Below, in pieces: positions 21,586 to 37,904 of a stretch of 64,000 nt of DNA. The DNA is from an uncultured Gemmatimonadota bacterium (GTDB lineage: Bacteria; GCA-2686955): the NCBI GenBank assembly GCA_964490075.1, contig CAZBBK010000006.1, positions 1 to 64,000 of the forward strand. The letters run 5' to 3'. A program made the translations under genes and the position numbers. The number at the start of each line of letters is the position of its first letter. Position 1 is the first letter of the stretch. Below the pieces are notes generated by a model. The model was not told the DNA's origin. It was given only the letters and a program-made list of their open reading frames with translations, and did not search any database.

Positions 21586-22823
21586 GGTCCGACCCCTTCG
21601 ATGACGCGGAATCCGCTGCCGTCCGACACCACGATCAGGGTTCCCTCCTCGTCGGTGCGCCGCACCTCCACGCCTGCGTCGGACCAGCGCTGCACGGCGC
21701 CCGGATCGGGATGCCCGAAGGAGTTGTCGGCGCCGACCGAGATCAGCGCCAGCTCGGCGTCGACAGCGGCCACGAAGGGCGCCGACGAGCTGAAGGCCGA
21801 GCCGTGGTGGGGCACCTGCACCACCTCCACGTCGAGCTCGGCCGCCGCGCGCTCCACCAGCTCGCCCTCGGTCTCGGTCCCGATGTCGCCGGTGAGCAGC
21901 ATCTCGAACTCCCCGAACTCCACCCGCGTCACCACCGAGAGCTCGTTCAGCTCGTCCTCCTCGGCGTCGCACTCGGTGCTCAGCGAATCGGCCGGATTGA
22001 GCACCGACAGACGGCTCTCGGCATCGATCTCGAGCTCGCGCCCGTCGGCGACGTTGTGCACCTCGAGCCCGCCGGCATCGACCAGGCTGTCGACCACCGC
22101 GTGCAGCTCGGCGAGGTCGGCGCCGCCCGCGGCACGCCGGCAGCTGCGCCACAGGGTCTGCACCGGAATCCCCCGCAGCACGGAGATGAGCCCGCCGTAG
22201 TGGTCGCGGTCCTGGTGCGTCGAGACCACCAGGTCGAGGGCGTTGACCTCGGCGCTGCGCAAGTACTGCAGCAGCCCCGGTCCCTCCTCCGGCTCCCCCC
22301 CGTCCACCATCACCTTCGGCCCCTCCGGGAACTCCACCAGGATCGCGTCGCCCTGCCCCACGTCGATCATGTGGACACGGATCTCGTCCGCCCCCAGGGC
22401 CGTGACCCTGACCCCCGCCTGGTCGTTGGAGGGGTCGTCGTCGTCGGCTTCGAGGCGTGCCAGGAAGCGATGTTCCCCCGCCGGAATCGAGTCGAGGCGG
22501 GTCGCGACCGTGAGCGAGTCGCCGGAGCTCAGCACGACGATTTCGCTCGCCTCGCCGAGCAGCTCCTCGGCGGACCCGATCTCGTCGGCGTCGGCGTCCA
22601 GGAAGAAGCTGAGCAGGGCGTGGGTGGCCAGCTCCGCACCCTGGTTGGTCACCGTGGCCTCGAGCAGCACGCTGCGGCCGACGGTGGCCGGCGACGGGCT
22701 CGCCGCCAGGCGCGTCAGGGCCAGATCGAAGGTGGAGACCTGGGGCGCGGCCGGCTCGCGCGCGCAAGCCCCGAGCACGATCAGCGACGCGATCGCCGCC
22801 CCGCTCCCTCGCCGCCCCCTCAT
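21582..22823 (-). CDS. Lipoprotein: CARDB-like Ig + ComEC-type metallo-beta-lactamase domain
   Basis: Lipobox LGAC; DVGQGDA, THQDRDHYGG, LTGD, VPHHGS, NSFGHP and RTD motifs; no membrane channel domain. Confidence 0.85.
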   Translation of the reverse strand: MRGRRGSGAAIASLIVLGACAREPAAPQVSTFDLALTRLAASPSPATVGRSVLLEATVTNQGAELATHALLSFFLDADADEIGSAEELLGEASEIVVLSSGDSLTVATRLDSIPAGEHRFLARLEADDDDPSNDQAGVRVTALGADEIRVHMIDVGQGDAILVEFPEGPKVMVDGGEPEEGPGLLQYLRSAEVNALDLVVSTHQDRDHYGGLISVLRGIPVQTLWRSCRRAAGGADLAELHAVVDSLVDAGGLEVHNVADGRELEIDAESRLSVLNPADSLSTECDAEEDELNELSVVTRVEFGEFEMLLTGDIGTETEGELVERAAAELDVEVVQVPHHGSAFSSSAPFVAAVDAELALISVGADNSFGHPDPGAVQRWSDAGVEVRRTDEEGTLIVVSDGSGFRVIEGVGP

Positions 22824-23098
22824 GACGCGCCCCCCTCCGCTTCGCCGTCCTCCGCCTCGCGCGTCATTTCGAGCAGCCTTCGCTGCAGCTCGGAGGTGCG
22901 CCCGCGCAGCGCCGCTTCCCGATCGGGGTCGCGCTGCAGCGTGATCTTCAAACAGGCGCCTTCGCCCGCCCCTTCCGGCAAGCGCTGCTGGGGCAGCAGC
23001 AGCTCCCCGCCGCCGACGATGGCGATCACCGCCCGCCCCTCCTCGATCCGATCCACGGCCGCCGCCAGCACTCGTCTCCCATCGCCGTCTTCGGTCAT
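22820..23098 (-). CDS. DUF3006-like small protein
   Basis: AVDRIEEGRAV...LPEGAGEG..L plus C-terminal helix; ATGA overlaps at both ends. Confidence 0.75.
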   Translation of the reverse strand: MTEDGDGRRVLAAAVDRIEEGRAVIAIVGGGELLLPQQRLPEGAGEGACLKITLQRDPDREAALRGRTSELQRRLLEMTREAEDGEAEGGAS

Positions 23099-24897
23099 AG
23101 CGAAATCCTGAGCCCGAGCCGGGCCTCCGTGTCGGGGTTCACCTCGCGCTCGTCATCCTGGTAGCGACGACTGCGCACCCGCGCTTCGAACTGATAACGG
23201 TCCAGGAAGCGCATCCGCTCCTCGACCTGGAGCTCCGCGTAGGCGTCGCCGGCCGAGTCGAAATCTCTGTCCACCCAGCGGAAACGCAGCCAGGGAGAAA
23301 GCGGGGCCAGCCGCCTGAGCGAGGTCTCCAGCCAGATCTCGCCAGAGTGTACATCGCCCCCCGTCGCACTGCGCGCGCGCAGCACGCCGCGCAGGCGTAG
23401 ATCGGTGTGGGCGCCGATGTCGCTGCGACCGTCCAGGATCAAGGTGCGCCGCTCGCGCGCTTCGCCCTCGGTGTCGTCGCTATCCCAGAGGTGGCTGAAC
23501 ACGGCACGGCGCCGCGTGGAGGCGCGCCACGCCAGGGTCAGATCGGCTTTGCGGTCGGTCTCGCCGTCCAGCGCGTTGGCCCAGCGCGCGAACGCCCCCT
23601 CCACACTCCAGCGCTCGGCGAGGTCGAGCTCGGTCTCGATCAGCGCTCCGCGCTCGCCGGCCTGGCGGTCGCGGATCTCTATCTCGTCCTCCGGCAGCGC
23701 GTCGAAGGCGACCCGGTCGACGTCCGCCGTGCCGCCGCCGTGCACGTTCACGAAGTCGGTGCCGTAGTGCCAGACCGTCGCCCCGCTCTCGAACACCGCG
23801 CCACGCGCCTCGACGCGCAGCTCGCTGCCGAGGCCGTGGCCGGGGCTCCACGAGCTCTCTCCCGAGATCTCCACGAGTCCGATCCTGCTCGCCCCGAAGA
23901 GCGCCAGAAAGTCGCGCTCGAACGTGTCGCCCGAGGCCGCGCCGAGCAACGACTGTCGCGCCCCCAGCGCCCCGATCGAATGCTCCGCCCAGCGCCGCTC
24001 CAGCGACGCCGCCAGCACCCGATCGCGAAGCAGCGCGTAGCGGTTCTCCGAGATCAACACCACCGGCGCCAGCGCCCCGGCGCGCAGCGCGGCGTAGAGC
24101 CCGTTGTAACGCCCCAGGCGCGGCACCAGCAGGGTGCCCACTCCCGGCCCGGGCGTGCGCAGGCTGGCGGTCAAGGCCACCCGCCGCCCGAGCGTGATCC
24201 CCATTCCGAGCTGCTCGCGAATGGTGCCGGCGATCACCCGCTGCACCGGCCCCGCGCCGGCATCGTAGGAGAGCGAGCGCTCCTCGAAGCCGGGCCGCTC
24301 GTCCTCTTCGGAGCGGGCCCGAAAGCGCAACCGAATCGCCCCCGCGCCGGCCGGCATGCGCAGATCGGCGCTGAGATCGTTGCGCAGATCGCCCCCCTCG
24401 TGAAAATCGCGCGCCGATTGCATCTTGAGCCAGCCATCGAGCTCGATCCCCGGCAGTCGCGGCAACCCCCTCGCCGGCGCCGGCGCGCCATCCTCGCGCG
24501 CCGCCAAATCGACCACCCGGGCGAAGGCCCGAAGCTGGTCCGCGTCGACCCCCGGCACGGCGACCAGGTCGGCCACCGAAACGAAGCTCTCGACCTCGTC
24601 GCGGCGCCGCTCGATCGCCCGCAAGTCGTGGGGCGTCACACCGGGCACCGCCAACAGCCGCGACAGCTCGTCGCCGTTCAGGTCGACCGGATCGCGCAAG
24701 AGCTCCAGCAGCTCATCGCGGGTCTGCTCGTCGAGCCGGCCCTCGGCGTAGGCATCCTCGACGTCCTCCTCCGACTCGAGGCGCAGGTCGGTGATGAGCT
24801 GGGCGCCCCCGTGGTCGAAGGTCGCGCAGACGAGCAGCAGCGCCAAAAGTCCTGCCGCGCGCCGGCCGCCGGAACCGTGCCGCCGGCGCCGATTCAC
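23095..24897 (-). CDS. HhH (ComEA-like) domain + predicted outer-membrane beta-barrel
   Basis: Signal peptide; PVDLN...LLAVPGVTP...FVSVADLVAVPGV HhH; C-terminal amphipathic strands ending RLGLRISL. Confidence 0.75.
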   Translation of the reverse strand: MNRRRRHGSGGRRAAGLLALLLVCATFDHGGAQLITDLRLESEEDVEDAYAEGRLDEQTRDELLELLRDPVDLNGDELSRLLAVPGVTPHDLRAIERRRDEVESFVSVADLVAVPGVDADQLRAFARVVDLAAREDGAPAPARGLPRLPGIELDGWLKMQSARDFHEGGDLRNDLSADLRMPAGAGAIRLRFRARSEEDERPGFEERSLSYDAGAGPVQRVIAGTIREQLGMGITLGRRVALTASLRTPGPGVGTLLVPRLGRYNGLYAALRAGALAPVVLISENRYALLRDRVLAASLERRWAEHSIGALGARQSLLGAASGDTFERDFLALFGASRIGLVEISGESSWSPGHGLGSELRVEARGAVFESGATVWHYGTDFVNVHGGGTADVDRVAFDALPEDEIEIRDRQAGERGALIETELDLAERWSVEGAFARWANALDGETDRKADLTLAWRASTRRRAVFSHLWDSDDTEGEARERRTLILDGRSDIGAHTDLRLRGVLRARSATGGDVHSGEIWLETSLRRLAPLSPWLRFRWVDRDFDSAGDAYAELQVEERMRFLDRYQFEARVRSRRYQDDEREVNPDTEARLGLRISL

Positions 24898-26003
24898 CGC
24901 CGCTCCGCCCGCTCGGAGATCACCTGCAGCCGCTTGCCGTCGCTGAGAAAACGAATCGTCCCCTCCCGATCGGTCCGGCGCACCTCCACCCCCGCCGCTT
25001 CGAGATGCTCGACCGTCGACTGGTGCGGGTGTCGGAACTTGTTGCGCCGGCCGCACGAGATGGCCGCGACGCTCGGCCGCACCTGGGCCAGGAAGGGCGC
25101 CGTGGTGGAGCTGCGCGATCCGTGGTGCCCCACCTTCAAGAGGCAGGCGGAGGGGATCTCTCCGGAACGTAAGAGCTCCTCTTCCTCTTCCGCCTCGGCG
25201 TCGCCGGTGAGCAGCGCCACGAAGTCGCCGTAGACGATCTCGATCACCACCGAGCTGTTGTTGACGTTCTCGTCGGGCCTCGGGTCGGGCCCCAGGACCC
25301 GCACCCGCACCCGAGGATCGAGCGCCAGCGTGTCGCCGATGGCCGCGACCCGGTAGCGGATCTGCCGCTCCGCGAGCAGTCCCAGCAGCGTTTCGTAGGT
25401 GTCGGAGGCGTAGGGCGCACCGGGGTCGACGAAGAGGCCGATGGGCAGCGCTCGCGCCACCGCGACCATGCCGCCGATGTGGTCGGCGTGGGGATGGGTG
25501 CCGACCGCGACGTCGATGCGCTCGATGCCGCGGCGCCGCAGGTAGGGCACCACCACCTTCTCGCCCATGTCGTCGGGGACCTGGAAGTAGCCGTCCTCGC
25601 CCTTGCGCGGCGTGCGGCTGTGAAAGGCGACCCCGGCGTCGACCAGCAGCGTGCGCCCGTTGGGCGCAATGACCAGGATCGCGTCGCCCTGGCCCACGTC
25701 GAGCACGGCGATCTCCAGGGTGTCGGCGCCGGCCGGCAGCGCTCTGCGCTCGATCCGGCAGCGCGGCCCGACCGGCTCCAGCCGCCCCGCTCCCTTGTGC
25801 TTCTCGACTCCCTTGGGACCGGCCGCGGGGGCCTTCGCGCGCGGCGCCGAGCTTCGGTCCGGCACCCGCCGCCGTGCCTCGATTCGATCGGTGTAGGGAT
25901 TGCGGAAGAAGCCCGACGAGCCGCAGCCAGCGACCAGCGTCGCGGCCAGCACGAGCGTGATCAGCGATCGCGGTCCGCTACGGAAGAGGGGGGATCCGAT
26001 CAT
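24894..26003 (-). CDS. Lipoprotein with ComEC-type metallo-beta-lactamase domain
   Basis: Lipobox LVAGC; DVGQGDA, THPHADHIGG, NNSSVV, LTGDAE, KVGHHGS, NKFRHPH, RTDREG. Confidence 0.88.
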   Translation of the reverse strand: MIGSPLFRSGPRSLITLVLAATLVAGCGSSGFFRNPYTDRIEARRRVPDRSSAPRAKAPAAGPKGVEKHKGAGRLEPVGPRCRIERRALPAGADTLEIAVLDVGQGDAILVIAPNGRTLLVDAGVAFHSRTPRKGEDGYFQVPDDMGEKVVVPYLRRRGIERIDVAVGTHPHADHIGGMVAVARALPIGLFVDPGAPYASDTYETLLGLLAERQIRYRVAAIGDTLALDPRVRVRVLGPDPRPDENVNNSSVVIEIVYGDFVALLTGDAEAEEEEELLRSGEIPSACLLKVGHHGSRSSTTAPFLAQVRPSVAAISCGRRNKFRHPHQSTVEHLEAAGVEVRRTDREGTIRFLSDGKRLQVISERAERR

Positions 26004-26012
26004 CGGCGCGCG

Positions 26013-27134
26013 CTATCTCAGCAACATCAGCGTCAAGACCCGCTCGGAGCCGCCCCGGGTGCTCAGACGACATCGATAGACCCCGCTGGCCAGCGCGGAT
26101 GCGTGCCACTCGAGACGATGCTCGCCGGCCGGGCGTGGCGCGTCGCGCAGCGGTGCATCGACCAGCCGTCCGCTCAGGTCGTGGATCTCGATCGTGATCC
26201 GTGCCGGCGCCGCCAAGGAGTAGGAGATCGACACCCGCGGATTGAAGGGGTTGGGACTGGCGGCTAGGGCCGTGATCGCCGCGCTCGGAGGAGCTTCCCG
26301 CCCGCCGGCATCGTCCTCCACCCCCGAGGGACTCCAGAAGTAGGCACGGCGCACCAGGGTGGTGTCGACCACGAAGGGGTTCGGCTTCTGGTCCTGGTGG
26401 ACGGCGATCAGCTCGGTGCGCGTCGCCTCCCAGGCGTCGACCGGATCGAGCGCGTGCCAGTCCCGCAGCGCGCTCTTCTGCTTGGAGAAGAAGTAGGGGT
26501 CGGCGCTGTCGGCCTGCTCCTGGTACATCGTGTAGAAGTAGAACATCGCCCGTGCCACGTTCCCCTTGTGGTCCTCGCGCGGCTCGAAGCGGACGTTCTG
26601 CTGCTCCTCGCTGTACTCGTCGATGTGGGTGAAGGGGACGTAGTCGATGTCGTAGTCGAGCCGCCACCAGCGATCGGCGTGGGGATCGTAGACCTCGCCG
26701 AAGGCCAGGCTGCCGCGAGCGGAGTTTGTCACGTCGCGGGTCGGGAAAAGGTGGTGCATGTCGGCCCTGGCCTGGCCGCTGGCGCCCTTGCTCTGGGGCC
26801 AGGTGTGCTCGGTGTTGATGCCGCGGCTCTCGGCGTAGCTCGAGGGGTCGCTGCCGGGATCGATGTAGATCGTCAGGCCGGTGTAGACGCAGGTCAGCGA
26901 GTCCTGGTGGTTGTCGATCTCGCCGAAGAGCTCGTCCTTGGCGTCGCCGTAGCTCAAGGTCTGGCCTGGCTTGTAGGAGCCGAACAGGGCGTCGAGCAGA
27001 TCGTCGCCGTAGAGATCGGGGAAGATCGGCGTGTCCTGGGCCTGGAGCGGAGAGGCCCGGAGCAGCAGGCAGCAGCCGGCCGCAAGCAGTTTGACGAGAG
27101 GGCTCTGGGGAATGGAGATCGGCACGGTGGGCAC
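26013..27134 (-). CDS. Secreted endonuclease I family (His-Me finger) nuclease with FlgD/T9SS-like C-terminal domain
   Basis: Signal peptide; NTEHTWPQS, DMHHLFPT...NSARG, FEPREDHKGNVARAMFYF, NPFV; tail PNPFNP...IHDLSGRLV...LASGVY. Confidence 0.88.
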   Translation of the reverse strand: MPTVPISIPQSPLVKLLAAGCCLLLRASPLQAQDTPIFPDLYGDDLLDALFGSYKPGQTLSYGDAKDELFGEIDNHQDSLTCVYTGLTIYIDPGSDPSSYAESRGINTEHTWPQSKGASGQARADMHHLFPTRDVTNSARGSLAFGEVYDPHADRWWRLDYDIDYVPFTHIDEYSEEQQNVRFEPREDHKGNVARAMFYFYTMYQEQADSADPYFFSKQKSALRDWHALDPVDAWEATRTELIAVHQDQKPNPFVVDTTLVRRAYFWSPSGVEDDAGGREAPPSAAITALAASPNPFNPRVSISYSLAAPARITIEIHDLSGRLVDAPLRDAPRPAGEHRLEWHASALASGVYRCRLSTRGGSERVLTLMLLR

Positions 27135-27176
27135 TCCTGGCGGCGATCTTCAGAGTAACCGCCGCCGGGCGCCGGA

Positions 27177-28562
27177 TCAGAATCCGAAGGTCAGCGCCGC
27201 CGTCACCCGGAAGAGCCGCTCCTCCACACGCTCGCGTTCGGTGCGCGGTTCGGCGGCGAAGAACAGATCGTTGATCGGATCGTCGTCGCGATAGGCCGCG
27301 TAGCCGAGGGCCCCCGCCACGTCGATCGTGGCCGGGCCGGCGCTGAGTTGGGTTCCCGCGCTGAAGCCGACCCGGTTGCGTTCGGCACCCGAGTAGGGCG
27401 CGCCGTAGGTGAAACCGAAGCGGAAAGGCGTGCCGCCCGGCAACAGGTGCTCGACCCCGAGCCGGTAGCGAGTCAGATCTTCCGGATCACGCGAGCTCAG
27501 CACATCTCCGTCGCTGGCCCAGGGCTCGTAGTCGACCTGGAACGCGAGGACCGTGCGCACCTCGTTCACCGGATGGAAGAGCAGGCCGACCGAGTGCCGC
27601 GGCGGGATCTTCGACTCCAGCGTGACCTGCTCGGTGGCAACGGAATCGCCCACCGTGGTGGTCCGGGAATCGTCGAAGTCGAGCGCCACGCCGGAGCGGA
27701 AGGCGTAGGCGAGCTCGAAGCGCTGCTCGAAGGCGAGGCGCAGGCCGCCGGTGAACGCCGTCGCCGTGGCCTCGATCTGGTTCTCCACGCTCCAGTCGGG
27801 ATAAGGAAGCAACGGCTCGTCCCAGACGATTTCGCCGGTGATCTGGTCGACGATGGTCACCGGTTCGTAGGTGACCGCCAGCTCGTTCGAGATCTCGGCC
27901 ATCAGGTAGTCGACACCGGCACCCACGGCAAGCGCCCAGCGATCGTTCGCGAAGAGCTCGTGCCCGAGCGAGAACACCGCCCGATCGATCCCCCCGCTCT
28001 GGACGAAAGAATTCGAGGCCAGCGGCAGGTCGGTGTAGTCGCCGACGATGTTCTGCGCCGGCAGCATTTCGCGGACGTCGTCGGGGAAGAACGAGACGAA
28101 CTGCCAGGGCGACAGGATTTGTTCTCGATAGGTGTAGTCGGCGACCCGCGCCGGCCGATAGGCCAGCCCGAGCACCGGCAGCTTCGGATGCACCGCCCAG
28201 GCCGCCGTCACCCCCGGGTAGCCATAACGGTGGGAGTTGAGGGCGTAGATGTTGTCGGTCAGGTAGCCGGAGAACGAGTCGTGCACCGGGTAGGAGCGAC
28301 GCTCGTCGTTGGCGTCGAGCATGCCCAGAATCTGCACCTCGACCCCTTCGTGCCCCGCCAGCGCCGCCGGGTTGGCTCCCACCGCCGCCGCGCCGCGCGC
28401 CACGGTCATTCCGGTGCCGCCCAAGGCCGTCTCGCGCGCGCCGGCGTCCTCGAAAGCTGTTCCCAGGTCCCACTCCGAGTTGGGAGCGGGGCGCGCCACG
28501 GTCGCCATGCTCAGGCCGGCGATGGTCGTGCGGAGGATGCGGATCTTCATTGGCGTCACCAT
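27177..28562 (-). CDS. FadL/PorV-like outer-membrane beta-barrel protein
   Basis: GARETALGG...NPAAL N-motif, amphipathic strands, terminal Phe (LTFGF); alternative start at 28550. Confidence 0.72.
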   Translation of the reverse strand: MVTPMKIRILRTTIAGLSMATVARPAPNSEWDLGTAFEDAGARETALGGTGMTVARGAAAVGANPAALAGHEGVEVQILGMLDANDERRSYPVHDSFSGYLTDNIYALNSHRYGYPGVTAAWAVHPKLPVLGLAYRPARVADYTYREQILSPWQFVSFFPDDVREMLPAQNIVGDYTDLPLASNSFVQSGGIDRAVFSLGHELFANDRWALAVGAGVDYLMAEISNELAVTYEPVTIVDQITGEIVWDEPLLPYPDWSVENQIEATATAFTGGLRLAFEQRFELAYAFRSGVALDFDDSRTTTVGDSVATEQVTLESKIPPRHSVGLLFHPVNEVRTVLAFQVDYEPWASDGDVLSSRDPEDLTRYRLGVEHLLPGGTPFRFGFTYGAPYSGAERNRVGFSAGTQLSAGPATIDVAGALGYAAYRDDDPINDLFFAAEPRTERERVEERLFRVTAALTFGF

Positions 28563-31057
28563 GTGTAGTCCAGCTGCAGCCGGAACTGGGTCGATTCGCT
28601 GAGCTCCAGAGGAGCGTCGTTTTCTTTCGATGCGAACTCGAACTCGCCGTTGTAGTAGCGCGCGTCGCGCCAATTGGTCGGGTTCTCGCGGTGCCAGGCC
28701 ACCTTCATGTAGAGCGAGAGATGGTCCGAGAGACGGTCCCAGATCGACACCCAGGCGCGCGTCCCTTCGCCGTCCACCACCAGGAACTCGGTGTCCTCGA
28801 AGTTCCAGAAGAAGCCCTTGAAAGCGGTGGCGCCGGCGCGCAGCTTGAGCCGCTCGTTGACTCGATGATCGACCACGGTTCCGAGAGCGATCGAGGGCTC
28901 GGTCTCCGACCCTTGCAGGGGCACGCGCTCGTCCTGGTCGGTCTCGCGGTAGATCGGCCCGCCCTCCTCGGTGCCGGCCAGGCGCCCGCGCGAGGGCCAC
29001 CGAGTGTGGCCGATGTGATACAGAAACTCGATTCCGTTGCGGTCCGACAGAAAGAGCCGCAGGCGGATGCGATCCTCGATCGTCTGGCTGATCTCGATCG
29101 TCTCGCGGAACCCTTCCTCGTTGCGCGACTGCCATTTGTGTCGCCACTGGATGCGCAGGGGCCAGGTCGGCTGGAACTCGAGCCGAGGCACGATGCGCTT
29201 GAACGCTGATCCGTCCGACTTGCGCAGCCAGGTCGAGTAGTCGACCGTCGCCAGCAGCATGCGGTGCAGGCGGAATCGGGTCGATCCGTAGAAGCCGCGC
29301 TCCGGCGCCGGCTGGGCGCTGTTCACGAAGAGCTCCGCCATCAGCGGATTGGTCAGCCGGAAGGGATCCTCGAAGAGTGTGCCGTCGTAACGCTCCTTCT
29401 CGCTGAAAGCGCGGTTGAAGGGATTGTCGTAGTCGACGTCGTAGTCGCGGTACAAGAGGAGCAGGTTCAGATTCGACCACTGGGCGAAGGCGCTGGCGAT
29501 GAACGCATCGCCGGCGCCGAGCTGCTTGGCGTATTCGACTTGCCCGACCGCGTTCTTCCACACCACCTGGGCGTCGCCGCCCACCACCCGCCGGAACTTC
29601 CCCTCGAGCTGGTTGGCCAGCAGATACTCGTTGTCGATGGGGCCGATCTCGTCGCGGGCGTCGTCCAGAATCACGCCCTCGTAGGAGGGCAGAAAGAAAC
29701 GATCGTAGAGCGACTCGTAGCCGGTGACCGCCAGGTGGGTGCCGGGGGCGAGCTCGTAGCGGATGCTGCCGCCCCAGGTGGTCTCGTTCACCGAGTCGGC
29801 GGCGATATAGGCGTCGCTGGAGTCGAGCTGCGAGGGATGCAGTCCGAGCGTGTCGGGCAGATCGGCGGAGTCGAGCTTGGGATCGAGGGTGATCAGCGCC
29901 TGCACCTGACCCGCGGCATCCAGGATCGCGTCACGATCGTCGCTCGACCAGAAGCCGATGATGCGCCAGTCGTTCCACGCCATCTGCGCCGCCGCTCCGC
30001 GGAACGCGTGCTGGTCGGTGCGGCTGATGTCGCCGAGAATCCCCTGCTGGCGCTTGTCGAAGATCAGCCCGCTCTTGCGCGGCCGATAGAAGTCGGTGTT
30101 CTCGAGGATCAGTCCCCGGCCCATCGCCAACGAGTAGTTGCCGGCCACGAAATGCTCGAGCGTGAAGGGACCGAGGGCGCGGTGCCTGGTTCCCAGGTAG
30201 CCCTTGAGCGTGCCGTTCAAGTCGCTCTCGAAGGCGCGCCGGTGGGTGATCAGGCCCGCTTCCCAGGTCTCCCCCACGCGCCCGCGAATCTTCGTCGTCA
30301 CCTCGGGATGCTGCTCGTCGAGTCCGAGCAACGAGTAAGCGTCGCGTACGAACTGTTGATTGTAGTAGGTGGAGTCGTTGTCGGCGGCGTACAGGTCCTC
30401 GCGATAGAGCTCTTCGCTGTCGGTGATGGTGAGCGGACGGGTGATGCGCACTTGCGCGTCGCCGCTGAAGCCGCGCCCGATCTCGTCCTGGTAGCGCACG
30501 TAGTCGCGCACCGAACGCCAGCCGTAGTACGAAAGCCCCGGTGTGCTGCGCAGGTCACGCGCCGACTTGATGTTCTCGCCGCCGCGCACATGGCGCACGA
30601 TCGCCGCGGCATCGATCGGCGACACTCCGGGAAGCGACTGCAGACGGTCGGTGCTGGCCGTCGCCAGAGTGATCGGCACTCGTAGCTGGTCGATGTAGTT
30701 GTCGATCAGCGCCTCGTTGGCCCCCTCTTGCGAGGTGAGGTTGGCGATGCTGGTGTAGAGTCGATCGAGGCGCTGCACGTCGAGGCCGCGCCCCTGCTCC
30801 GGCAGAATCGCCACGCGCTCGCGCAACCGCAGCAGCATCGGCTGCGTCAGTCCTGGAACCAGGCGCAGATCGTAGAACGACTCGAAGGCACCCTGGTAGG
30901 TCAGCCGCTCGAGCAACGCGTCGGTCACGTCGTCCGGCAGGCCCAGGGTGCGGATCTCGTCGGGAGAGGCGTTGTTGAGGTCGAGCGGGGGCACCGCATG
31001 GGCGCCGGTCGCGACCAGCAAAGCCGCGACGCAGACGTTGACCCTCAGGGCGCGCAT
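28556..31057 (-). CDS. Tandem HhH domains + large predicted outer-membrane beta-barrel
   Basis: Signal peptide; LDLNNAS...FESFYDLRLVPGL and LATAS..RLQSLPGVSPIDAAAIV HhH units; aromatic-rich strands; terminal beta-signal FRLQLDYTW. Confidence 0.8.
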   Translation of the reverse strand: MRALRVNVCVAALLVATGAHAVPPLDLNNASPDEIRTLGLPDDVTDALLERLTYQGAFESFYDLRLVPGLTQPMLLRLRERVAILPEQGRGLDVQRLDRLYTSIANLTSQEGANEALIDNYIDQLRVPITLATASTDRLQSLPGVSPIDAAAIVRHVRGGENIKSARDLRSTPGLSYYGWRSVRDYVRYQDEIGRGFSGDAQVRITRPLTITDSEELYREDLYAADNDSTYYNQQFVRDAYSLLGLDEQHPEVTTKIRGRVGETWEAGLITHRRAFESDLNGTLKGYLGTRHRALGPFTLEHFVAGNYSLAMGRGLILENTDFYRPRKSGLIFDKRQQGILGDISRTDQHAFRGAAAQMAWNDWRIIGFWSSDDRDAILDAAGQVQALITLDPKLDSADLPDTLGLHPSQLDSSDAYIAADSVNETTWGGSIRYELAPGTHLAVTGYESLYDRFFLPSYEGVILDDARDEIGPIDNEYLLANQLEGKFRRVVGGDAQVVWKNAVGQVEYAKQLGAGDAFIASAFAQWSNLNLLLLYRDYDVDYDNPFNRAFSEKERYDGTLFEDPFRLTNPLMAELFVNSAQPAPERGFYGSTRFRLHRMLLATVDYSTWLRKSDGSAFKRIVPRLEFQPTWPLRIQWRHKWQSRNEEGFRETIEISQTIEDRIRLRLFLSDRNGIEFLYHIGHTRWPSRGRLAGTEEGGPIYRETDQDERVPLQGSETEPSIALGTVVDHRVNERLKLRAGATAFKGFFWNFEDTEFLVVDGEGTRAWVSIWDRLSDHLSLYMKVAWHRENPTNWRDARYYNGEFEFASKENDAPLELSESTQFRLQLDYTW

Positions 31058-31995
31058 CAGAACTCGACTCCCACGCCAATGAAGTGCGACGCCGGTAAGA
31101 TCGGATGATCGCCGAAGGCGTAGTCCAGGACGAAATGACCGAAGCCGATCCGCGCTCCGCCCGAGAAGCGCGCCGGCTCCGACCCGACGCCCACTCTGAG
31201 CGTCAAGGGATCGGCGATCCGGTACTCCACCCCGGCCCGCAGCCGCGCCGGCTCTTCGCCCGAGGCCACTTCGACCTCACCGGTCGTGATCACGTCGGGA
31301 TAGGGCTCGTAGGTCGCTCCCAGCACGAGCTCCTCGAGGAGCTGAACACTGTCGGTATCGCCGAGCGAGGGACGATTGACGTTGCGCAGCACCGCGCTGA
31401 GCGCCGTGCGGCTCTCCAGCAGGGCACGCACGCCGACGTCGACACCTATTGTCGCGCCGCTGCCCAAGTCGATTCCGCCCACGTAGGACTCGGTGGCCGG
31501 CACGTAGGTTCCGGCCGAGGTTCCGAAGTCGAGCTGGTGGAAGTGCGCCGTCCAGCCGATCGCCAGGCTGGAGTGCACATCCTCCAGCACCGTGATCCCC
31601 TGGCCGACCGACACCGTCAGCTCGGTCGACAGATTGTCGCCGGCACCGGACTCGGTCGAAAACACCCGCACCCCGGCCGCCAGGCCGCCGAAGCGCCCGG
31701 TGGAGATCCCGCCGTAGGCCAGGTTGTGGCTCAGGAAGTCGAAGTTGCCGATCCGGTTGTGGCTGAAGGCCACCTGTGGGGTCGCGAGCTCCACCAGGGC
31801 GGCCGGGTTGTAGTAGAGCGCCGATGCATCGGTGATCAGGGCGCTGGCCGCGTCGCCGACGGCGATCGCCCGCGGTGTCGGTCCCTCGAGGTCGAACGCC
31901 GCCCGGGCCGGGCCGGCCGCGACGGTTGCAACGGTTGCGACGATCACCAAGGCGACCGCGGTCCTGGAAATTCGATCAGTCAAGGCGGGCTCCAA
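31057..31995 (-). CDS. PorV/PorP/PorQ-like outer-membrane barrel
   Basis: Signal peptide; PRAIAVG...ALYYNPAAL; LDYAF..HP.L; terminal Phe; clear paralogue of the barrel part of 15932-17074. Confidence 0.8.
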   Translation of the reverse strand: MEPALTDRISRTAVALVIVATVATVAAGPARAAFDLEGPTPRAIAVGDAASALITDASALYYNPAALVELATPQVAFSHNRIGNFDFLSHNLAYGGISTGRFGGLAAGVRVFSTESGAGDNLSTELTVSVGQGITVLEDVHSSLAIGWTAHFHQLDFGTSAGTYVPATESYVGGIDLGSGATIGVDVGVRALLESRTALSAVLRNVNRPSLGDTDSVQLLEELVLGATYEPYPDVITTGEVEVASGEEPARLRAGVEYRIADPLTLRVGVGSEPARFSGGARIGFGHFVLDYAFGDHPILPASHFIGVGVEF

Positions 31996-33646
31996 TCACG
32001 ATCGGCGCCGATGCCGAGCTGGTCGATCCGTCGCCGGTCTGCGAGGCTCGAACATTGACGACATAAGTGCCTGCCTGCAGCCGCTGGTTCAGGCGGTCGC
32101 GGCCGTCCCAGTAGAGATCGCGGTTGCCGTAGGGTGGAGCGTTGGCTCCTTCGTGCAGCGTGGCCACCGCGCGCCCGGTCACGTCGAAAACCTGTATCCA
32201 GACATAGCTGGCGGGAGGCGCGTTCCACACCACTCGCACCCTCTCGCCGGCGCGCGGAGCGAACAGAGGTCGCGGCACACTCACCGTTGCCGTCGCCACC
32301 TCCAGCGTGTCGAGCCCGTCCGGCGGCGTGCCGGCCAGGTTCAGATCATCCTGGTAGGCGAGGAGCACCTGAAATGCGTCGTTGTAGACCGAGCCGATTC
32401 CGGTCACTTCGATCAGCTGGTCGCGCGTCACGTTCTGTTCGATGTAGTCGCCCAGGTTGGTGGTATCCCAGACCCGCATCGTGGTGCTCCCCGAGCCGTC
32501 CGAGAGCGGCACGTTCCAGCCTCCGCCAGCGTTCGACGGCGTCTCCGTCACCCAGCCGTTGACGGTGATCAGAGTTCCGTCCCACGCGAAGGAGCTCGAC
32601 TCGCGAACCGTCAGCAAACGCGCCGCCGGCAGCTCGGCACCGGTGGAGATCACAGTGATGTCGGTGAGGTTGGTGAGCTCGGTGGTACCGTAGAGATTCG
32701 GCTCGCTGATGTAGTCCTCGACCACGCCGGTGATGCACACCTCGGTACCGCGCACCAGGTCGGCGCGCGGATCGAAGTCGAACACATTGATCCCCTTGCC
32801 AGACTCGTCCTGCACGTAGATCGAGGTGAAATCGTCGCGAATCAGGCCGTAGCCGACCGTCACCACCCCGCGAATCGTCACCTCTCTGCCGTCCCACAGG
32901 TGCAGGCTGTCCTGGATCGCCGCGATCGGCGTCGGATCGTCGCAGGTGCCGGGCTCGATCGTGCCGCCGGACCAGGGTCCGCCGACCCACAGGTCTTCCT
33001 GGTCGACCAGCAACACCTGGAAGTCCGAGTCGTAGGGGGAAACGATCCCTTTGACGCTGATCGAGTCGCCCTCGTCGACGGCGCCGAGGTCGATGCCGAT
33101 GGAGTCCCAGACCCGCACGGTGATCTGGCCGCTGCCATCGTCCACGGAGACGTTCGATCCGCCGCCGGCCGAGAAGATCGGCTCGGTCACCTGCCCGGTG
33201 ATCTGCACGTAGCGACCTTCGTGCTCTTCATCGTTGGCCGCCGCGGTGGTGAGCTGCGCGGGCGTCGGAAGCGGCTGCCCGGTGGCTTCGACCGAGGGCG
33301 CCGACGAGGGGATGATCTCGGTGGTCGGGTAATCGTTACCGCCCTGGTAGTCCTCGATCTCGCCCGTGACCTTGATCCGGTCGCCGCGGTTCCACGGGTA
33401 GAGATTGTTGTAGTCGAAGACCTGGATGCCCCAGCCGGAGTCGTCCTGGATGTAGACCGAGGTGCGGCCGGGCCAGAGGTCGCCGTTGTCCCCCAGGCTG
33501 ACTCCCTCGACCGTCACCGTTTGGCCGTCGTAGTGGGAGATGCTGTCCTGGATGTTGGCGATCGGGATGATGGTCTGGGCGGTCGCCGCTGCCCAGGCCG
33601 TGGCGAGGCAGAGGGGCAGGGCGAGGTGCAGCCTGTGGAGTCGCAC
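31976..33646 (-). CDS. Secreted protein with four OB-fold (nucleic-acid-binding-like) repeats + FlgD/T9SS-like C-terminal domain
   Basis: Signal peptide; duplicated pair PIA.IQDS...DG..VT..GV...Y.QD.SG.GI.VF / ..DGSG...RVWD; tail VFDVTGRAVATL...WDGRD...LQAGTYVV. Confidence 0.78.
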   Translation of the reverse strand: MRLHRLHLALPLCLATAWAAATAQTIIPIANIQDSISHYDGQTVTVEGVSLGDNGDLWPGRTSVYIQDDSGWGIQVFDYNNLYPWNRGDRIKVTGEIEDYQGGNDYPTTEIIPSSAPSVEATGQPLPTPAQLTTAAANDEEHEGRYVQITGQVTEPIFSAGGGSNVSVDDGSGQITVRVWDSIGIDLGAVDEGDSISVKGIVSPYDSDFQVLLVDQEDLWVGGPWSGGTIEPGTCDDPTPIAAIQDSLHLWDGREVTIRGVVTVGYGLIRDDFTSIYVQDESGKGINVFDFDPRADLVRGTEVCITGVVEDYISEPNLYGTTELTNLTDITVISTGAELPAARLLTVRESSSFAWDGTLITVNGWVTETPSNAGGGWNVPLSDGSGSTTMRVWDTTNLGDYIEQNVTRDQLIEVTGIGSVYNDAFQVLLAYQDDLNLAGTPPDGLDTLEVATATVSVPRPLFAPRAGERVRVVWNAPPASYVWIQVFDVTGRAVATLHEGANAPPYGNRDLYWDGRDRLNQRLQAGTYVVNVRASQTGDGSTSSASAPIVIGARLD

Positions 33647-33855
33647 GCGTTTGTTCCGGTCGAGGTGAAGGGATCGATTACGAGACGCGAGAGACTAACA
33701 CCCTCGACGACACGGCGCCGGTTCGTTTCGGAGCCGCAAGACCTGAACGGCGTCAACCATTGTTTACAACCGCGTGCCGTCTTGGACCGTTCCGAGATCG
33801 CCATCGTCACCCTAACCAATTCATTATAAACGCTTTATGTCTATCGCTCCAAGGT

Positions 33856-33871
33856 CGGCACGAAGCCTGCA
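33856..33871 (+). promoter_or_regulatory. Sigma54-type promoter motif
   Basis: CGGCACGAAGCCTGCA (GG-N10-GC), preceded by an AT-rich tract at about 33814-33840. Confidence 0.5.
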
Positions 33872-33927
33872 CTGTGTCCCGCCATCTCACCCACAGCATC
33901 CCCCCGCGCAACCAAGGGAGCCGATTC

Positions 33928-35454
33928 ATGAAGAAAGCAGCCGCCTTCGCCCTCCTCGCCCTGCCGAGCCTGTCCGCGGGCGCCGAAGCCAAGACGATCA
34001 ACGTCCCCGCCGACACCCCATTCATCGCCGCCGCGGTCTCCATGGCCCAGTCCGGCGACGAGGTCGTGGTGGCGCCCGGCACCTACCACGAGGACTGGAT
34101 CGTCACCAAGGGGAAGGCGATCACGATCCGCGGCAAGGATCCGATGAGCTGGGGCACGATCGAGAAGACCGTGGTCCGCGGCCAGGGCGACGGTCCGGTC
34201 TTCATCTTCAGCGGCGGCGAAGGCCCCGACACGGTGCTCGAGGGACTCACCATCACCGGCGCCGGCGGCAAGGGATCGCTGGCCGCCGGCATCACGGCGC
34301 TGAGCGCCAGCCCGACGCTGCGCAACTGCCTGGTGCGCGACAACCAGAGCCCGGGCATCCAGCTCAACGACTCCGACGCGATGATCGAGGGCTGCCGCGT
34401 GAGCCGCAATTCCGCCAAGATCGGCGGCGGCATCTATGCCTACCGGGGCTCGTCCCCGACCATCGACTACTGCACCATATCCGGCAACGTGGCGACCGGC
34501 ATCGGCGGCGGCGGCGTGGCCGCCTACTTGGGCAGCGAGACGACGATCCTGCGCAGCGTGATCACCGGCAACGAGGCGCTCGAGGCCGACGCCGCCCTGG
34601 GCGGGGGACTGTGGTGCGGCAGCCGCAGCTCGGCGCTCCTGGTCAACTCGCTGATCTCCGGCAACCGAGCCCTGATCGGCGGCGGCGTCGCGTCCGGCGT
34701 GGCTCCCTCCTCCAGCTACGCCTCGCCCGCCACCGTCGACATGCTCGACTGTGTGATCCGGGGCAACGTGGCGCTGGCGCACGGCGGCGGGTTCTACGCC
34801 GGTCCTCAGAGCGACGGATTCATCGATCGCACCGAGATCCTCTCCAACCACGCCGCCCATGACGGCGGCGCCCTGCACGCACTCGACCTGGCCCAGCCGG
34901 TGTTCAGCGCCTGCACCTTCGCCGGCAACAGCGCCGACGGCGACGGCGGTGCGCTCGCCACCGAGGGCTGCTCGCCGCGCTTCGAAAGCTGTCTCCTGGT
35001 CGACAATCACGCGCGCGGCCGCGGCGGCGCCCTGCACGCCCTGGAGGGCTCCCCGCGTCTGACCCACTGCAGCCTGACCGGCAACGAAGCGGAGTCGGGC
35101 GGCGCCCTCTGCTCCGCCACCGGCGCCCATCCCAAGGTCTACAGCTCGATTCTGTGGCGCGACCTCCCCGACGAGGTGGCGCTCGAAGGCGGCAACGCAT
35201 CGATCCACTACTCCGACGTGAAGGGCGGCTTCTTCGGCATCGGCAACATCGATCTCGACCCCAACTGGTTCTCCACCGGCGAGCACGCAATGCTGCTGCA
35301 CAAGGCCTCGCCCTGCATCGACGCCGGCGCTCCCTGGTCCAAGGACAGCGTCGACTGGACCCAGGACGGTCCCTGGTTCGCCGGCGCCAACACCGACGCA
35401 TCCGACATGGGCGTCTACGGCGGCGGCGAAGCCTGGCTCTGGTTTAGCGAGTAG
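33928..35454 (+). CDS. Secreted right-handed beta-helix repeat protein
   Basis: Signal peptide MKKAAAFALL; VAPGTYHE; many N.A..GG repeats; GNIDLDP...SPCIDAG...SDMGVYGG tail. Confidence 0.85.
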   Translation: MKKAAAFALLALPSLSAGAEAKTINVPADTPFIAAAVSMAQSGDEVVVAPGTYHEDWIVTKGKAITIRGKDPMSWGTIEKTVVRGQGDGPVFIFSGGEGPDTVLEGLTITGAGGKGSLAAGITALSASPTLRNCLVRDNQSPGIQLNDSDAMIEGCRVSRNSAKIGGGIYAYRGSSPTIDYCTISGNVATGIGGGGVAAYLGSETTILRSVITGNEALEADAALGGGLWCGSRSSALLVNSLISGNRALIGGGVASGVAPSSSYASPATVDMLDCVIRGNVALAHGGGFYAGPQSDGFIDRTEILSNHAAHDGGALHALDLAQPVFSACTFAGNSADGDGGALATEGCSPRFESCLLVDNHARGRGGALHALEGSPRLTHCSLTGNEAESGGALCSATGAHPKVYSSILWRDLPDEVALEGGNASIHYSDVKGGFFGIGNIDLDPNWFSTGEHAMLLHKASPCIDAGAPWSKDSVDWTQDGPWFAGANTDASDMGVYGGGEAWLWFSE

Positions 35455-35474
35455 CCCCGACTTCTCGCCACTGC

Positions 35475-35508: not shown

Positions 35509-35552
35509 GGTTATCCTCGTTTCAGGACCCATCGACTCACAAGGAGCCTGAT

Positions 35553-37864: not shown

Positions 37865-37904
37865 ACCGCTTGTCCCTTGGGAATTGCCAGGCTATCTTGC
37901 CAAT

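Follow-up and report, generated by a model that had tools for sequence, protein, structure and literature searches.

A putative DNA-scavenging operon with HhH modules fused to predicted outer-membrane barrels in a marine Gemmatimonadota-like bacterium

Two proteins that carry HhH units ahead of a long beta-rich domain, P0001 (833 aa) and P0002 (600 aa), are read here as outer-membrane components of an operon for scavenging extracellular DNA, a reading to which we assign a probability of about 0.55. The operon lies within a window of 64,000 nucleotides (the whole stretch of DNA analysed), and its host, judged by homologues and relatives, is marine and Gemmatimonadota-like rather than a member of the Bacteroidota. 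Ten genes run on the minus strand from 33646 to 15932 with boundaries that overlap or nearly abut, and an intergenic scan found no terminator-like sites between them. Matches to Pfam, NCBIfam and PDB profiles place DNA-related domains throughout the operon, and three of its products are predicted outer-membrane proteins with ComEA-like HhH modules. A DNA-related role is well supported by the predicted content, which comprises a T9SS-tailed endonuclease I, a ComEC-type metallo-beta-lactamase (MBL) nuclease, OB-fold/DUF5689 and lamin-tail-domain (LTD) proteins and, in relatives, a 5'-nucleotidase. With the PADLOC defence models nine of the ten operon proteins gave no match, and the MBL protein gave partial, generic MBL-fold matches only. 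The operon probably serves, in a manner not yet described, to capture DNA from the environment and to move it across the outer membrane; we found no published description of this HhH-barrel family in the literature.

P0001 (28556-31057, minus strand) had been described in an earlier note with the right coordinates and length, and its translation of 833 aa ends in QLDYTW. The N-terminus, MRALRVNVCVAALLVATGAHA followed by VPP, is signal-peptide-like as judged by eye, and it precedes a pair of ComEA-like HhH units, at about residues 24-90 and 106-190, and a beta-rich predicted outer-membrane domain of about 640 aa. Both units of the earlier description were recovered with Pfam HHH_3 (E 2.7e-11, 43.8 bits against a cut-off of 27, two stretches); in a six-frame genome search the unit at 30815-30985 scored 22.9 bits, under the cut-off, and that at 30503-30679 scored 30.4 bits. 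From about residue 196 to 833 hydrophobic and polar segments alternate, about 24-31 of them by a crude count. The protein has many relatives (22 word-search matches, 170 cluster representatives at E<=1e-30, 534 species genomes), and the C-terminal residue is aromatic in all 72 complete homologues, F in 47 and W in 25, within the tail pattern h-R-h-Q-h-D-Y-x-F/W. The family thus shows the generic features of outer-membrane beta-barrels, namely a leader peptide, an aromatic-ended C-terminal beta-signal and no hydrophobic helices. We infer a barrel at the level of sequence, backed by the C-terminal F/W and the tail pattern in the homologues; covariation analysis, with an Neff of 49, was uninformative. 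When P0001 and 20 family members were scanned there was no match to any Pfam barrel family, and Plug, TonB-dependent receptor and CarboxypepD_reg domains were absent from P0001, P0002 and all 20 members even at E<=1. Nor did P0001 match any T9SS family in NCBIfam, and hhalign detected no relation to the neighbouring PorV-like (0.4%) or FadL-like (1.5%) families. In the predicted barrel part of the family Arg is the commonest conserved residue, occupying 18 of the 83 columns conserved at >=90% against a background of 8%, and 27 columns are basic-conserved vs 18 acidic-conserved, a pattern that would suit an anion-conducting lumen.

The earlier note had taken both proteins for outer-membrane channels that could replace a secretin plus ComEA. 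An outer-membrane location of P0001 is well supported by predicted features, as it agrees with the signal peptide, with the C-terminal signal of OMP type found in 72/72 homologues and with the flanking genes for PorV- and FadL-family barrels. The idea of a replacement did not survive, because secretins are matched five times in the genome, which also has a ComEC frame of 880 aa and, as a protein of its own, a ComEA of 156 aa; since these are kept, the operon replaces nothing, and another DNA route therefore exists in this genome.

P0002 (23095-24897, minus strand) likewise has the coordinates and length noted earlier, the 600-aa reading having a GTG start in overlap with the stop codon of the gene upstream and then a hydrophobic leader. 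Its single HhH unit is borne out by HHH_3 at 28.2 bits in the six-frame search, over the cut-off, and at 23.5 bits in the protein search, under it. A beta-rich C-terminal domain of about 450 aa follows, with alternating hydrophobic and polar segments over residues from about 150 to 600; the C-terminus, LRISL, keeps the alternating pattern but its final residue is Leu and not aromatic. P0002 has only three homologue clusters (52-71% identity), and significant BLASTP similarity of its C-terminal part is confined to these three close homologues. In the relative G002 it is kept together with the whole operon at 69% identity. Significant similarity between P0001 and P0002 lies in the HhH unit (94% by hhalign). 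A mid-protein motif common to the two, pointed out in the earlier note, is indeed present and colinear, with a G-x6-G-x-G spacing that is invariant in both families (G306/G313/G315 in profile A1, G224/G231/G233 in A2), but the motif match alone is not significant (hhalign E 0.2). A C-terminal stretch (P0001 584-652 against P0002 413-480) reached 93.8% in the default run and 3.7% with other settings. GC3 of the two genes is 0.86-0.88. P0002 is a short, lineage-restricted relative of P0001.

The last gene of the operon (15932-17074, minus strand) encodes a protein of 380 aa in which a PorV-family barrel (NCBIfam PorV_fam 8.7e-15) is followed by a C-terminal canonical ComEA HhH domain (Pfam HHH_3 1.8e-21). 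This third HhH fusion is absent from the earlier note and lies outside the span which that note covered. Its GTG start at 17074 overlaps the stop of the LTD gene. The protein passes the curated ComEA-repeat model TIGR00426 (53.3 bits, cut-off 53.1), and its family, profile A6, is close to the PorV-like profile A3 (hhalign 99.95%, E 1.3e-38). Full-length homologues are limited to P0180-P0182; in G002 a homologue at 74% identity directly follows the LTD gene.

The three fusions differ in the quality of their HhH units. Canonical Gly-hydrophobic-Gly hairpins were found only in the 380-aa fusion, which has LPGVGP and KGIGP (G-V-G and G-I-G). The 66 members of the P0001 family compared have hairpins without the canonical G-hydrophobic-G, reading LP-I-P/S-E-E in unit 1 and Q-N-V-S-P-V-D-A in unit 2, with further hairpins reading V-P-G-M-T and P-G-L-S, and they carry Asp or Glu where ComEA has Lys. 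Of the 66 sequences, 2% are positive in unit 1, where the mean net charge is -4.2, and 11% in unit 2, where the mean is -2.3; since the canonical ComEA tail of the 380-aa fusion is likewise at net -6, charge by itself carries little weight in this proteome. Against the curated ComEA models P0001 scored 22.7 bits with TIGR01259 (cut-off 152) and 16.7 bits with TIGR00426 (cut-off 53.1), and 8 of 20 family members gave weak matches to the non-DNA-binding HhH-like domain of the T2SS protein GspK. Binding of DNA by the HhH modules is a predicted property. The modules stand at the N-terminus of two predicted barrels and at the C-terminus of the third, and in one family member, P0085, TPR repeats come ahead of the HhH unit. 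As a rule the termini of outer-membrane proteins, and the TPR domains of TPR-porins, are periplasmic, and from these three points we infer that the HhH modules face the periplasm.

The genes around P0001 and P0002 give the operon its DNA-related character. The first gene (31976-33646, minus strand) encodes a secreted protein of 556 aa with an OB-fold (Pfam tRNA_anti-codon, 1.2e-16), DUF5689 (1.5e-10, 41.8 bits against a cut-off of 28.6) and a T9SS-type C-terminal tail (FlgD_ig 1.9e-7), and it also matches the N-terminal part of ExeM/NucH in NCBIfam (1.2e-10); it is the sole DUF5689 match in the genome and a candidate surface DNA receptor. It is followed by a small PorV/PorQ-like outer-membrane barrel of 312 aa (31057-31995, minus strand; NCBIfam PorV_fam 7.4e-9, below cut-off), whose family profile A3 hits PorV in the PDB (6h3i_F, 1.2e-5). 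Directly after P0001 comes a FadL-family barrel of 461 aa (27177-28562, minus strand), with profile A4 matching 9hiv_F 'Outer membrane protein' at 1e-17, TbuX/FadL/TodX at 1e-10 to 1e-13 and BamG at 3.6e-6; the PorV-like and FadL-like families are themselves related at 99% by hhalign. The next product, of 373 aa (26013-27134, minus strand), is a secreted nuclease consisting of endonuclease I (Pfam Endonuclease_1 1.1e-24) and a T9SS C-terminal sorting domain (Por_Secre_tail 3.7e-5; TIGR04183 9e-5). The 369-aa product of the following gene (24894-26003, minus strand) is a lipoprotein with an LVAGC lipobox that amounts to a stand-alone ComEC-type MBL nuclease domain: it matches NCBIfam ComEC_Rec2 at 1.4e-48 over model positions 440-663, the ComEC MBL domain 9ic4_A at 5.5e-56 and full-length ComEC 30bt_A at 1.3e-53, and both the lipobox and an HPHADH motif can be read from the translation. 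In the parts of the sources available to us, this type of MBL domain is described as acting during transformation, when it degrades DNA at the outer face of the cytoplasmic membrane (PMC8579336, PMC12455585). Beyond P0002 lie a 92-aa DUF3006 protein (22820-23098, minus strand; Pfam 6.8e-12), whose gene was found in L001, L002 and G002 only, and a secreted giant of 1898 aa (17071-22767, minus strand) with five LTD stretches (5.6e-64), CARDB (4.3e-19), DUF11 and a T9SS-type tail (FlgD_ig 2.5e-6). Outside the operon, on the plus strand, an UshA-like 5'-nucleotidase of 551 aa with a signal peptide (39996-41651; Pfam 5_nucleotid_C 3.3e-33, Metallophos 1.4e-11) adjoins a secreted LTD protein of 285 aa (41724-42581; LTD 9.6e-11, NCBIfam ExeM N-terminal part 4.6e-6).

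The core order of OB protein, PorV-like protein, HhH protein and FadL-like protein recurs across FCB phyla, its carriers being Gemmatimonadota, Eisenbacteria, Zixibacteria, Krumholzibacteriota, Calditrichota, Fibrobacteraceae, Marinimicrobia, Ignavibacteria and Bacteroidota MAGs; all 79 loci compared come from MAGs or uncultured records. The PorV-like gene is directly upstream of the HhH gene at 69/70 loci and the FadL-like gene directly downstream at 65/65, and a homologue of the OB-fold protein lies upstream on the same strand at 54 of the 56 loci with enough sequence. At 57/79 loci, many of them incomplete, the gene after the FadL-like one encodes a 5'-nucleotidase. The 551-aa enzyme of the present genome is 41-45% identical to these cassette-linked enzymes over its full length and is their displaced counterpart. 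EEP nucleases, LTD/DUF5689 proteins with T9SS tails and an ABC transporter are variable neighbours, and the single TonB-dependent transporter query, taken from L012, matched only its own locus among the 79. As the cassette 5'-nucleotidases bear SPI-like leaders, with a lipobox in 1/57 and no T9SS tail among the three that were domain-scanned, a phosphorylated substrate must reach the periplasm. As a counterpoint to DNA import, a periplasmic 5'-nucleotidase needs only the entry of mononucleotides, which is possible through porins or the FadL-like barrel.

Among known systems the nearest in logic are those built on DUF5689, of which the experimentally studied examples, as far as the available parts of the sources go, are only a DNA-utilisation locus (PMC12478041) and a natural-transformation system (PMC8459023). 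The former, the DNA-depleting locus ddbABCDEF of B. thetaiotaomicron, is described in the part available as combining the TonB-dependent transporter DdbC, the DUF5689 surface protein DdbD and nucleases (PMC12478041). Both it and the present operon belong to FCB lineages, place a DUF5689/OB-type surface protein beside an outer-membrane transporter candidate with secreted and periplasmic nucleases, and follow a PUL-like logic of binding, cutting, importing and digesting. Here, however, there is no TonB-dependent barrel but an HhH-tagged one with flanking PorV-like and FadL-like barrels, the DUF5689 protein carries no lipid anchor but a T9SS tail, and a 5'-nucleotidase belongs to the conserved core. 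In Riemerella anatipestifer a DUF5689 protein (RA0C_RS04920), a TonB-like barrel (RA0C_RS04915) and an HhH protein (RA0C_RS02645) are all reported, in the accessible part of the source, to be genetically required for DNA uptake (PMC8459023). By description only, this is the same set of surface DUF5689 protein, outer-membrane barrel and HhH DNA-binding protein, but the Riemerella HhH protein is separate, unlinked and predicted to be periplasmic and its barrel is TonB-like, whereas here HhH is fused to barrels of other families. As in the ddb and Riemerella systems a DUF5689 protein is present, two genes upstream of P0001, with endonuclease I and the MBL nuclease downstream, and this arrangement is conserved. 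ComEA, with structures such as PDB 8dss and 2duy, is matched at the structural level by the HhH units of P0001 (alignments at 3e-7 and 1.5e-5) and the proposed role, holding incoming DNA in the periplasm, is the same; ComEA, however, is small, soluble or membrane-anchored and has no barrel, while the present proteins are of 380, 600 and 833 aa and mostly predicted barrel, and the P0001 hairpins lack both the G-hydrophobic-G and the following Lys. With the secretin PilQ and the type IV pilus the operon would share the task of passing DNA through the outer membrane with direction given by a periplasmic HhH protein, but no operon protein matches the Pfam Secretin domain (PF00263) and no pilus or ATPase gene is linked to the operon, the secretin matches lying elsewhere in the genome. 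The flanking of a large barrel gene by FadL/PorV-family barrel genes recalls SprA-PorV (PDB 6h3i) and BamA-BamG, and in such FCB multi-barrel complexes the FadL/PorV-type barrels are described, in the part of the source available, as binding the large barrel and docking surface proteins (PMC12611786). The present arrangement differs in that P0001 has no detectable kinship to its own neighbours or to any Pfam barrel family. The uncharacterised DUF6029 of FCB phyla gave two weak, colinear matches below significance, one to P0001 504-686 through YRDYD...NP...ERG motifs (34%, E 4e-4) and the other through a GNY-x4-G-x-G-L motif (E 0.045), with a profile of three sequences only; it is also a language-model neighbour of P0001. 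DUF6029 proteins differ in lacking HhH units and in being sited elsewhere in genomes, and have no known function.

The preferred reading, DNA scavenging, is based on the domain content, the gene order with its conservation and the outer-membrane-type sequence signals. On this reading DNA would be held at the cell surface by the T9SS-secreted OB-fold/DUF5689 and LTD proteins, with the PorV-like barrel next to it probably serving as the docking site for the C-terminal tail of the OB protein, and would be cut by the secreted endonuclease I. The fragments would then cross the outer membrane via a putative complex centred on the 833-aa barrel and flanked by the PorV-like and FadL-like barrels. Tethered to barrel ends on what would be the periplasmic side, HhH modules may stop the incoming strand from sliding back: the large barrel has two degenerate ones, the short paralogue a single one and the PorV-family barrel a canonical ComEA domain. 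The ComEC-type nuclease lipoprotein and the periplasmic 5'-nucleotidase would digest the DNA to nucleosides and phosphate. The end use would be nutritional rather than genetic. In a bolder version, which we hold only tentatively, the PorV-like, HhH and FadL-like barrels would form a pilus- and TonB-independent DNA translocon in which double- or single-stranded fragments thread the Arg-lined barrel, drawn in purely by binding to ComEA-type modules tethered where up to three of the barrels open into the periplasm, as in a Brownian ratchet.

Other explanations have to be weighed against DNA scavenging. The HhH proteins might be a scaffold and not a conduit, hubs that hold together the surface receptor, two FadL/PorV-type barrels and periplasmic enzymes, with degradation outside and small products entering through the FadL-like barrel or general porins. 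The degenerate hairpins of the large family, with the weak resemblance of 8/20 members to the structural GspK domain, and the presence of secreted nucleases speak for this, as does the Bacteroidota BAM complex, where FadL-family barrels are bound accessory subunits that anchor surface proteins according to the available part of the source (BamG; PMC12611786). We nevertheless consider it rather unlikely: the periplasmic look of the cassette 5'-nucleotidase means that phosphorylated material must enter, the ComEC-type lipoprotein and the canonical ComEA domain on a barrel C-terminus imply polymeric DNA in the periplasm, and the Arg enrichment at conserved barrel positions is left unexplained. 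If the three barrels helped to secrete or attach the adjacent T9SS-tailed proteins as their specific cargo, with the HhH-like units serving protein contacts, this would fit the two PorV/PorQ-type neighbours, the cargo gene directly upstream and the presence of SprA in the genome, but P0001 is unrelated to its neighbours by profile comparison and matches no T9SS family in NCBIfam, and the linked periplasmic 5'-nucleotidase, the ComEC-type nuclease and the canonical ComEA tail would have no explanation, so that we think it very improbable; the reverse reading, export of DNA to a matrix, is less likely still.

Two further explanations, both improbable in our estimation, concern where the DNA is bound and what it is for. 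The HhH modules could lie outside the cell and tether environmental DNA there, whether in adhesion or biofilm or as a supply to surface nucleases, given that in P0001 and P0002 they are N-terminal, like the passengers of autotransporter-type proteins, and have predicted T9SS-secreted surface DNA-binding proteins as neighbours. However, the C-terminal domain of about 640 aa far exceeds autotransporter barrels, the third fusion, with its HhH at the C-terminus, resembles OmpA in layout, which favours the periplasm, the TPR repeats of P0085 recall periplasmic TPR-porins, and the predicted OB, DUF5689 and LTD proteins already supply surface DNA binding. Alternatively the complex could import long double-stranded DNA for natural transformation, to be passed to ComEC and not used as food. 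ComEA-type modules are hallmarks of competence, ComEC is in the genome, and a related DUF5689/TonB-type pair is, on the evidence of the accessible part of the source, essential for transformation in Riemerella (PMC8459023). Against this, the conserved partners are degradative (the 5'-nucleotidase at 57/79 loci, endonuclease I, EEP nucleases and the MBL nuclease), a Pfam search found no linked dprA, comF or recA within the window, and the system of B. thetaiotaomicron that is related to that of Riemerella has a catabolic role, as the part of its description available has it (PMC12478041).

If the translocon reading were true, it would represent a third kind of DNA entry through the outer membrane, beside the secretin/pilus and TonB-type routes, one spread widely among uncultured FCB phyla and, in the present lineage, extended by a second barrel and by a ComEC nuclease that stands alone.

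Translation and codon-position G+C (GC3 0.86–0.88) confirm that the two HhH frames are genuine minus-strand genes, in a window whose G+C is about 65–72%. The longer product (P0001, 28556–31057, 833 aa) begins with a leader resembling a signal peptide, followed by two HhH units and a long C-terminal part whose last residues are QLDYTW; HHH_3 is its sole Pfam match (E 2.7e-11, two stretches). The shorter (P0002, 23095–24897, 600 aa) starts at a GTG overlapping the stop codon of the upstream gene and consists of a leader, one HhH unit and then about 450 further residues; its HHH_3 score is 23.5 bits in the Pfam protein scan and 28.2 bits in a six-frame genome search. They are genes 3 and 7 of a ten-gene series transcribed in one direction from 33646 down to 15932, in which neighbouring genes overlap or nearly abut. 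Genes 1 and 2 encode an OB-fold/DUF5689 protein of 556 aa that bears a T9SS-type tail and a 312-aa PorV/PorQ-like barrel; P0001 is followed by a 461-aa FadL-family barrel (gene 4), an endonuclease I with a T9SS sorting domain (gene 5) and a 369-aa lipoprotein that is a ComEC-type metallo-beta-lactamase (MBL) domain (gene 6, 24894–26003); and P0002 by a DUF3006 protein (gene 8), a T9SS-tailed protein of 1898 aa that contains five lamin-tail domains (gene 9) and, beyond the span originally reported, a 380-aa protein (gene 10, 15932–17074), all on the minus strand. On the opposite strand, about 6 kb upstream of the operon, lie a 5′-nucleotidase with a signal peptide (39996–41651) and a lamin-tail-domain protein (41724–42581).

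No Rfam family was matched within 12–44 kb of the window and no sigma-70-like promoter was found; the two terminator-like sites are both intragenic and fewer than in shuffled sequence. The sequencing runs listed as containing this DNA were four of DNA, all from one marine study, and none of RNA. Two long minus-strand ORFs (33841–35532, 563 aa, and 38643–42359, 1238 aa) were rejected as antisense artefacts of the high G+C content, the true genes being on the plus strand; a GC3-based gene pick favoured the 1238-aa artefact and so masked the 5′-nucleotidase. A 794-aa ORF (27177–29561, minus strand) is over-extended, the real gene running only from 28562 downward. Divergent from the operon are two secreted right-handed beta-helix proteins (33760–35454 and 35553–36851, plus strand), the former with Chlamydia-PMP-type repeats, and a 279-aa ORF ending in a PIN domain (37784–38623, plus strand) lies between operon and 5′-nucleotidase. 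Directly downstream of the operon an 840-aa frame (12912–15434, minus strand) has several hydrophobic stretches and no Pfam match, its N-terminal 101 residues being 61% identical to those at the same place in a relative's genome (G002); beyond it two adjoining radical-SAM/SPASM proteins (10617–12911, plus strand) stand beside a GT4 glycosyltransferase (9358–10608, minus strand). A defence-system reading was also tried with PADLOC and rejected: nine of the ten operon proteins had no match, and the MBL protein gave only partial, generic MBL-fold matches.

The family of P0001 comprises full-length proteins annotated at most as ‘HhH domain’ or ‘ComE-like’. Relatives were found in 534 genomes in a scan of one genome per species, and a relative is present in all five searched genomes of the window's own GTDB phylum. 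The 79 retained loci derive from MAGs of Gemmatimonadota, Eisenbacteria, Zixibacteria, Krumholzibacteriota, Calditrichota, Fibrobacteraceae, Marinimicrobia, Ignavibacteria and Bacteroidota. Gene context was counted with the window's neighbour proteins as tblastn queries, the denominators being loci with enough flank. A PorV-like gene lies directly upstream of the HhH gene on the same strand in 69/70 loci, a FadL-like gene directly downstream on the same strand in 65/65, and an OB-fold gene upstream in 54/56. In 57 of the 79 loci, many of which are truncated, the FadL-like gene is followed by one for a 5′-nucleotidase (Metallophos + 5_nucleotid_C). The leaders of this enzyme resemble ordinary signal peptides by eye, a lipobox occurs in 1/57, and the three examples scanned for domains (L005, L011 and L061) lack a T9SS tail, so that the enzyme is most likely periplasmic. 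More variable neighbours are EEP nucleases, further LTD/DUF5689 T9SS proteins, an MBL protein and an ABC transporter, which is of the SBP_bac_8 type and lies a few genes upstream of the cassette in 24/79 loci (L004–L076). A TonB-dependent transporter was seen near the cassette at 1/79 loci (one query, from L012, matching only its own locus). In the window's lineage genes 5–10 have replaced the 5′-nucleotidase, which has been relocated; G002 shares the extended operon (gene 10 is 74% identical there) and a more distant relative (G001) keeps the standard cassette order.

The C-terminal part of P0001 is consistent with an outer-membrane barrel. P0001 has a leader peptide; all 72 complete homologues end in an aromatic residue, F in 47 and W in 25, within a tail h-R-h-Q-h-D-Y-x-F/W; about 24–31 conserved segments alternate hydrophobic and polar residues; and the immediate neighbours on both sides are FadL/PorV-family barrels. 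Residues ~196–833 had no Pfam match even at E≤1, PDB sequence searches with the barrel part returned nothing, and profile comparison detected no relation to the PorV-like and FadL-like neighbours. Covariation across 107 sequences (Neff 49; mutual information with APC) mainly reflected positions specific to subfamilies, and no strand pairing emerged. The barrel part does weakly and colinearly resemble DUF6029, the proteins of which (L094–L096) carry the motifs GNY-x4-G-x-G-L and YRDYD...NP...ERG in the same order, and this suggests a wider, unannotated barrel superfamily. The commonest conserved residue of the barrel part is arginine (18 of the 83 columns conserved at 90% or more, against a background of 8%), an enrichment that would fit a lumen carrying an anionic substrate but proves nothing.

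Unit 1 of the P0001 family aligns with ComEA structures, and its best match is to the HhH repeats of human EEPD1. Unlike the hairpins of ComEA (L-P-G-I-G-x-K and V-x-G-I-G-x-K), those of the family are degenerate (unit 1: L-P-I-P/S-E-E and V-P-G-M-T; unit 2: Q-N-V-S-P-V-D-A and P-G-L-S); across 66 sequences the conserved positions of unit 2 are S146 (63/66), P147 (66/66), D149 (63/66) and A150 (66/66). In almost every member both units carry a net negative charge, and eight of 20 members gave weak matches to the structural HhH-like domain of GspK. The degenerate hairpins, the acidity of the units and the GspK-like matches genuinely weigh against a simple DNA clamp of the ComEA kind on the large barrel. 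Charge is a weak guide, since in this proteome gene 10's canonical ComEA tail likewise has a net negative charge. Unit 2 of P0001 has its homologue in the HhH unit of P0002 together with the helix preceding it (94%, profile comparison). As to the mid-protein motif that the earlier note took the two proteins to share, a G-x6-G-x-G pattern is indeed colinear and invariant in both families, but alone it is not significant.

Both HhH-tagged proteins of that note are present, but with gene 10 the operon encodes three predicted outer-membrane HhH proteins. The barrel of gene 10 is paralogous to the PorV-like protein (hhalign 99.95%), and the protein ends in a canonical ComEA domain (HHH_3 1.8e-21; TIGR00426 53.3 bits against a cut-off of 53.1) with the hairpins LPGVGP and KGIGP intact. 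Such PorV–ComEA fusions are rare (3–4 homologue clusters, P0180–P0182 being the only full-length homologues), as is P0002 (three clusters). Gene 6 matches NCBIfam ComEC_Rec2 at 1.4e-48 and, in the PDB, the ComEC MBL domain (9ic4_A, 5.5e-56) and full-length ComEC (1.3e-53), and the HPHADH motif is present in its translation. The ComEC MBL domain is described as a nuclease working outside the cytoplasmic membrane (PMC8579336, PMC12455585). Being free-standing, the domain could be studied without the membrane channel, and the lipoprotein could serve as a practical soluble model for the C-terminal MBL nuclease of ComEC.

That the ten genes form an extracellular nucleic-acid scavenging operon is well supported and quite probable. 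For P0001 the reading we favour over any other is inferred: DNA fragments would pass the outer membrane through it while its HhH modules, tethered to the barrel, would retain the strand on the periplasmic side, and we give this statement as a whole a probability of roughly 0.55. The termini of outer-membrane proteins face the periplasm as a general rule, and for this reason the HhH modules are placed there; their display on the cell surface is a main rival. A variant with TPR repeats ahead of the HhH unit (P0085, 1251 aa, with the repeats N-terminal to HhH unit and barrel) and the OmpA-like layout of gene 10 were both counted in favour of the passage; P0139 (668 aa) also has a TPR repeat before its HhH unit, and in this arrangement the two resemble the TPR-porins of polysaccharide export. 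The ComEC-type nuclease and the canonical ComEA tail suggest that a polymer reaches the periplasm. A scaffold role for the HhH proteins, to be set beside the degenerate hairpins and GspK-like matches, and a role in T9SS cargo handling are further main rivals. We propose that the PorV-like protein, P0001 and the FadL-like protein may form a three-barrel complex because there are precedents in PorV with SprA (PDB 6h3i) and in BamG with BamA, where FadL-family barrels are reported to bind a larger barrel and to give surface proteins a docking site (PMC12611786).

The remaining main rival, use of the DNA for transformation rather than as food, is raised by Riemerella anatipestifer, in which each of three proteins is reported as essential for natural transformation: a DUF5689 surface protein, an adjoining barrel of TonB-like type and an HhH protein separate from it (PMC8459023). 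That HhH protein, RA0C_RS02645, was weighed as a candidate member of the P0001 family; it has its HhH domain at residues 236–301 (three HhH domains) and is predicted to be periplasmic, and its description mentions no barrel (PMC8459023). On the side of consumption, ddbABCDEF of Bacteroides thetaiotaomicron is reported as needed to deplete exogenous DNA; the locus is described as PUL-like, and its products are the TonB-dependent DdbC, the DUF5689 protein DdbD (modelled as a DNA-binding lid) and three nucleases (PMC12478041). The cassette has the surface receptor and the enzymes but lacks a TonB-dependent barrel, its candidate conduit being a different, unannotated barrel with fused HhH units. 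Replacement of secretin plus ComEA, as the earlier note proposed, does not hold: this genome has five secretin matches, ComEC and a separate small ComEA, its only one (156 aa, contig C31, L093 5140–5610, minus strand). The gene for the T9SS translocon, sprA (L093 6549–12707), lies two genes upstream of this ComEA, with an M28 peptidase gene between them.

The operon belongs with the DNA-utilisation or DNA-uptake loci of FCB bacteria. No published description of an HhH–barrel fusion was found in the literature outside subscription-only papers; new here are the short paralogue P0002, the PorV–ComEA fusion, the ComEC nuclease as a stand-alone lipoprotein, the counts that show how far the HhH hairpins have degenerated and the arginine enrichment of the barrel. 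The way DNA passes the outer membrane has been established for pilus/secretin systems; in Bacteroidota, TonB-type transporters have lately been proposed. In the cassette the same surface receptor and nucleases occur without either of these conduits, and its candidate conduit bears its own ComEA-like modules. The window's version is the richest among those examined, with three predicted HhH-tagged outer-membrane proteins, one fully canonical ComEA domain and a free-standing ComEC nuclease domain. Environmental DNA is a major pool of phosphorus and nitrogen. If the passage reading is true, the idea of a binding-driven ratchet would be testable within one polypeptide, and a large part of the uncultured FCB bacteria in marine and sediment habitats would recycle environmental DNA by an unstudied, possibly energy-free route.
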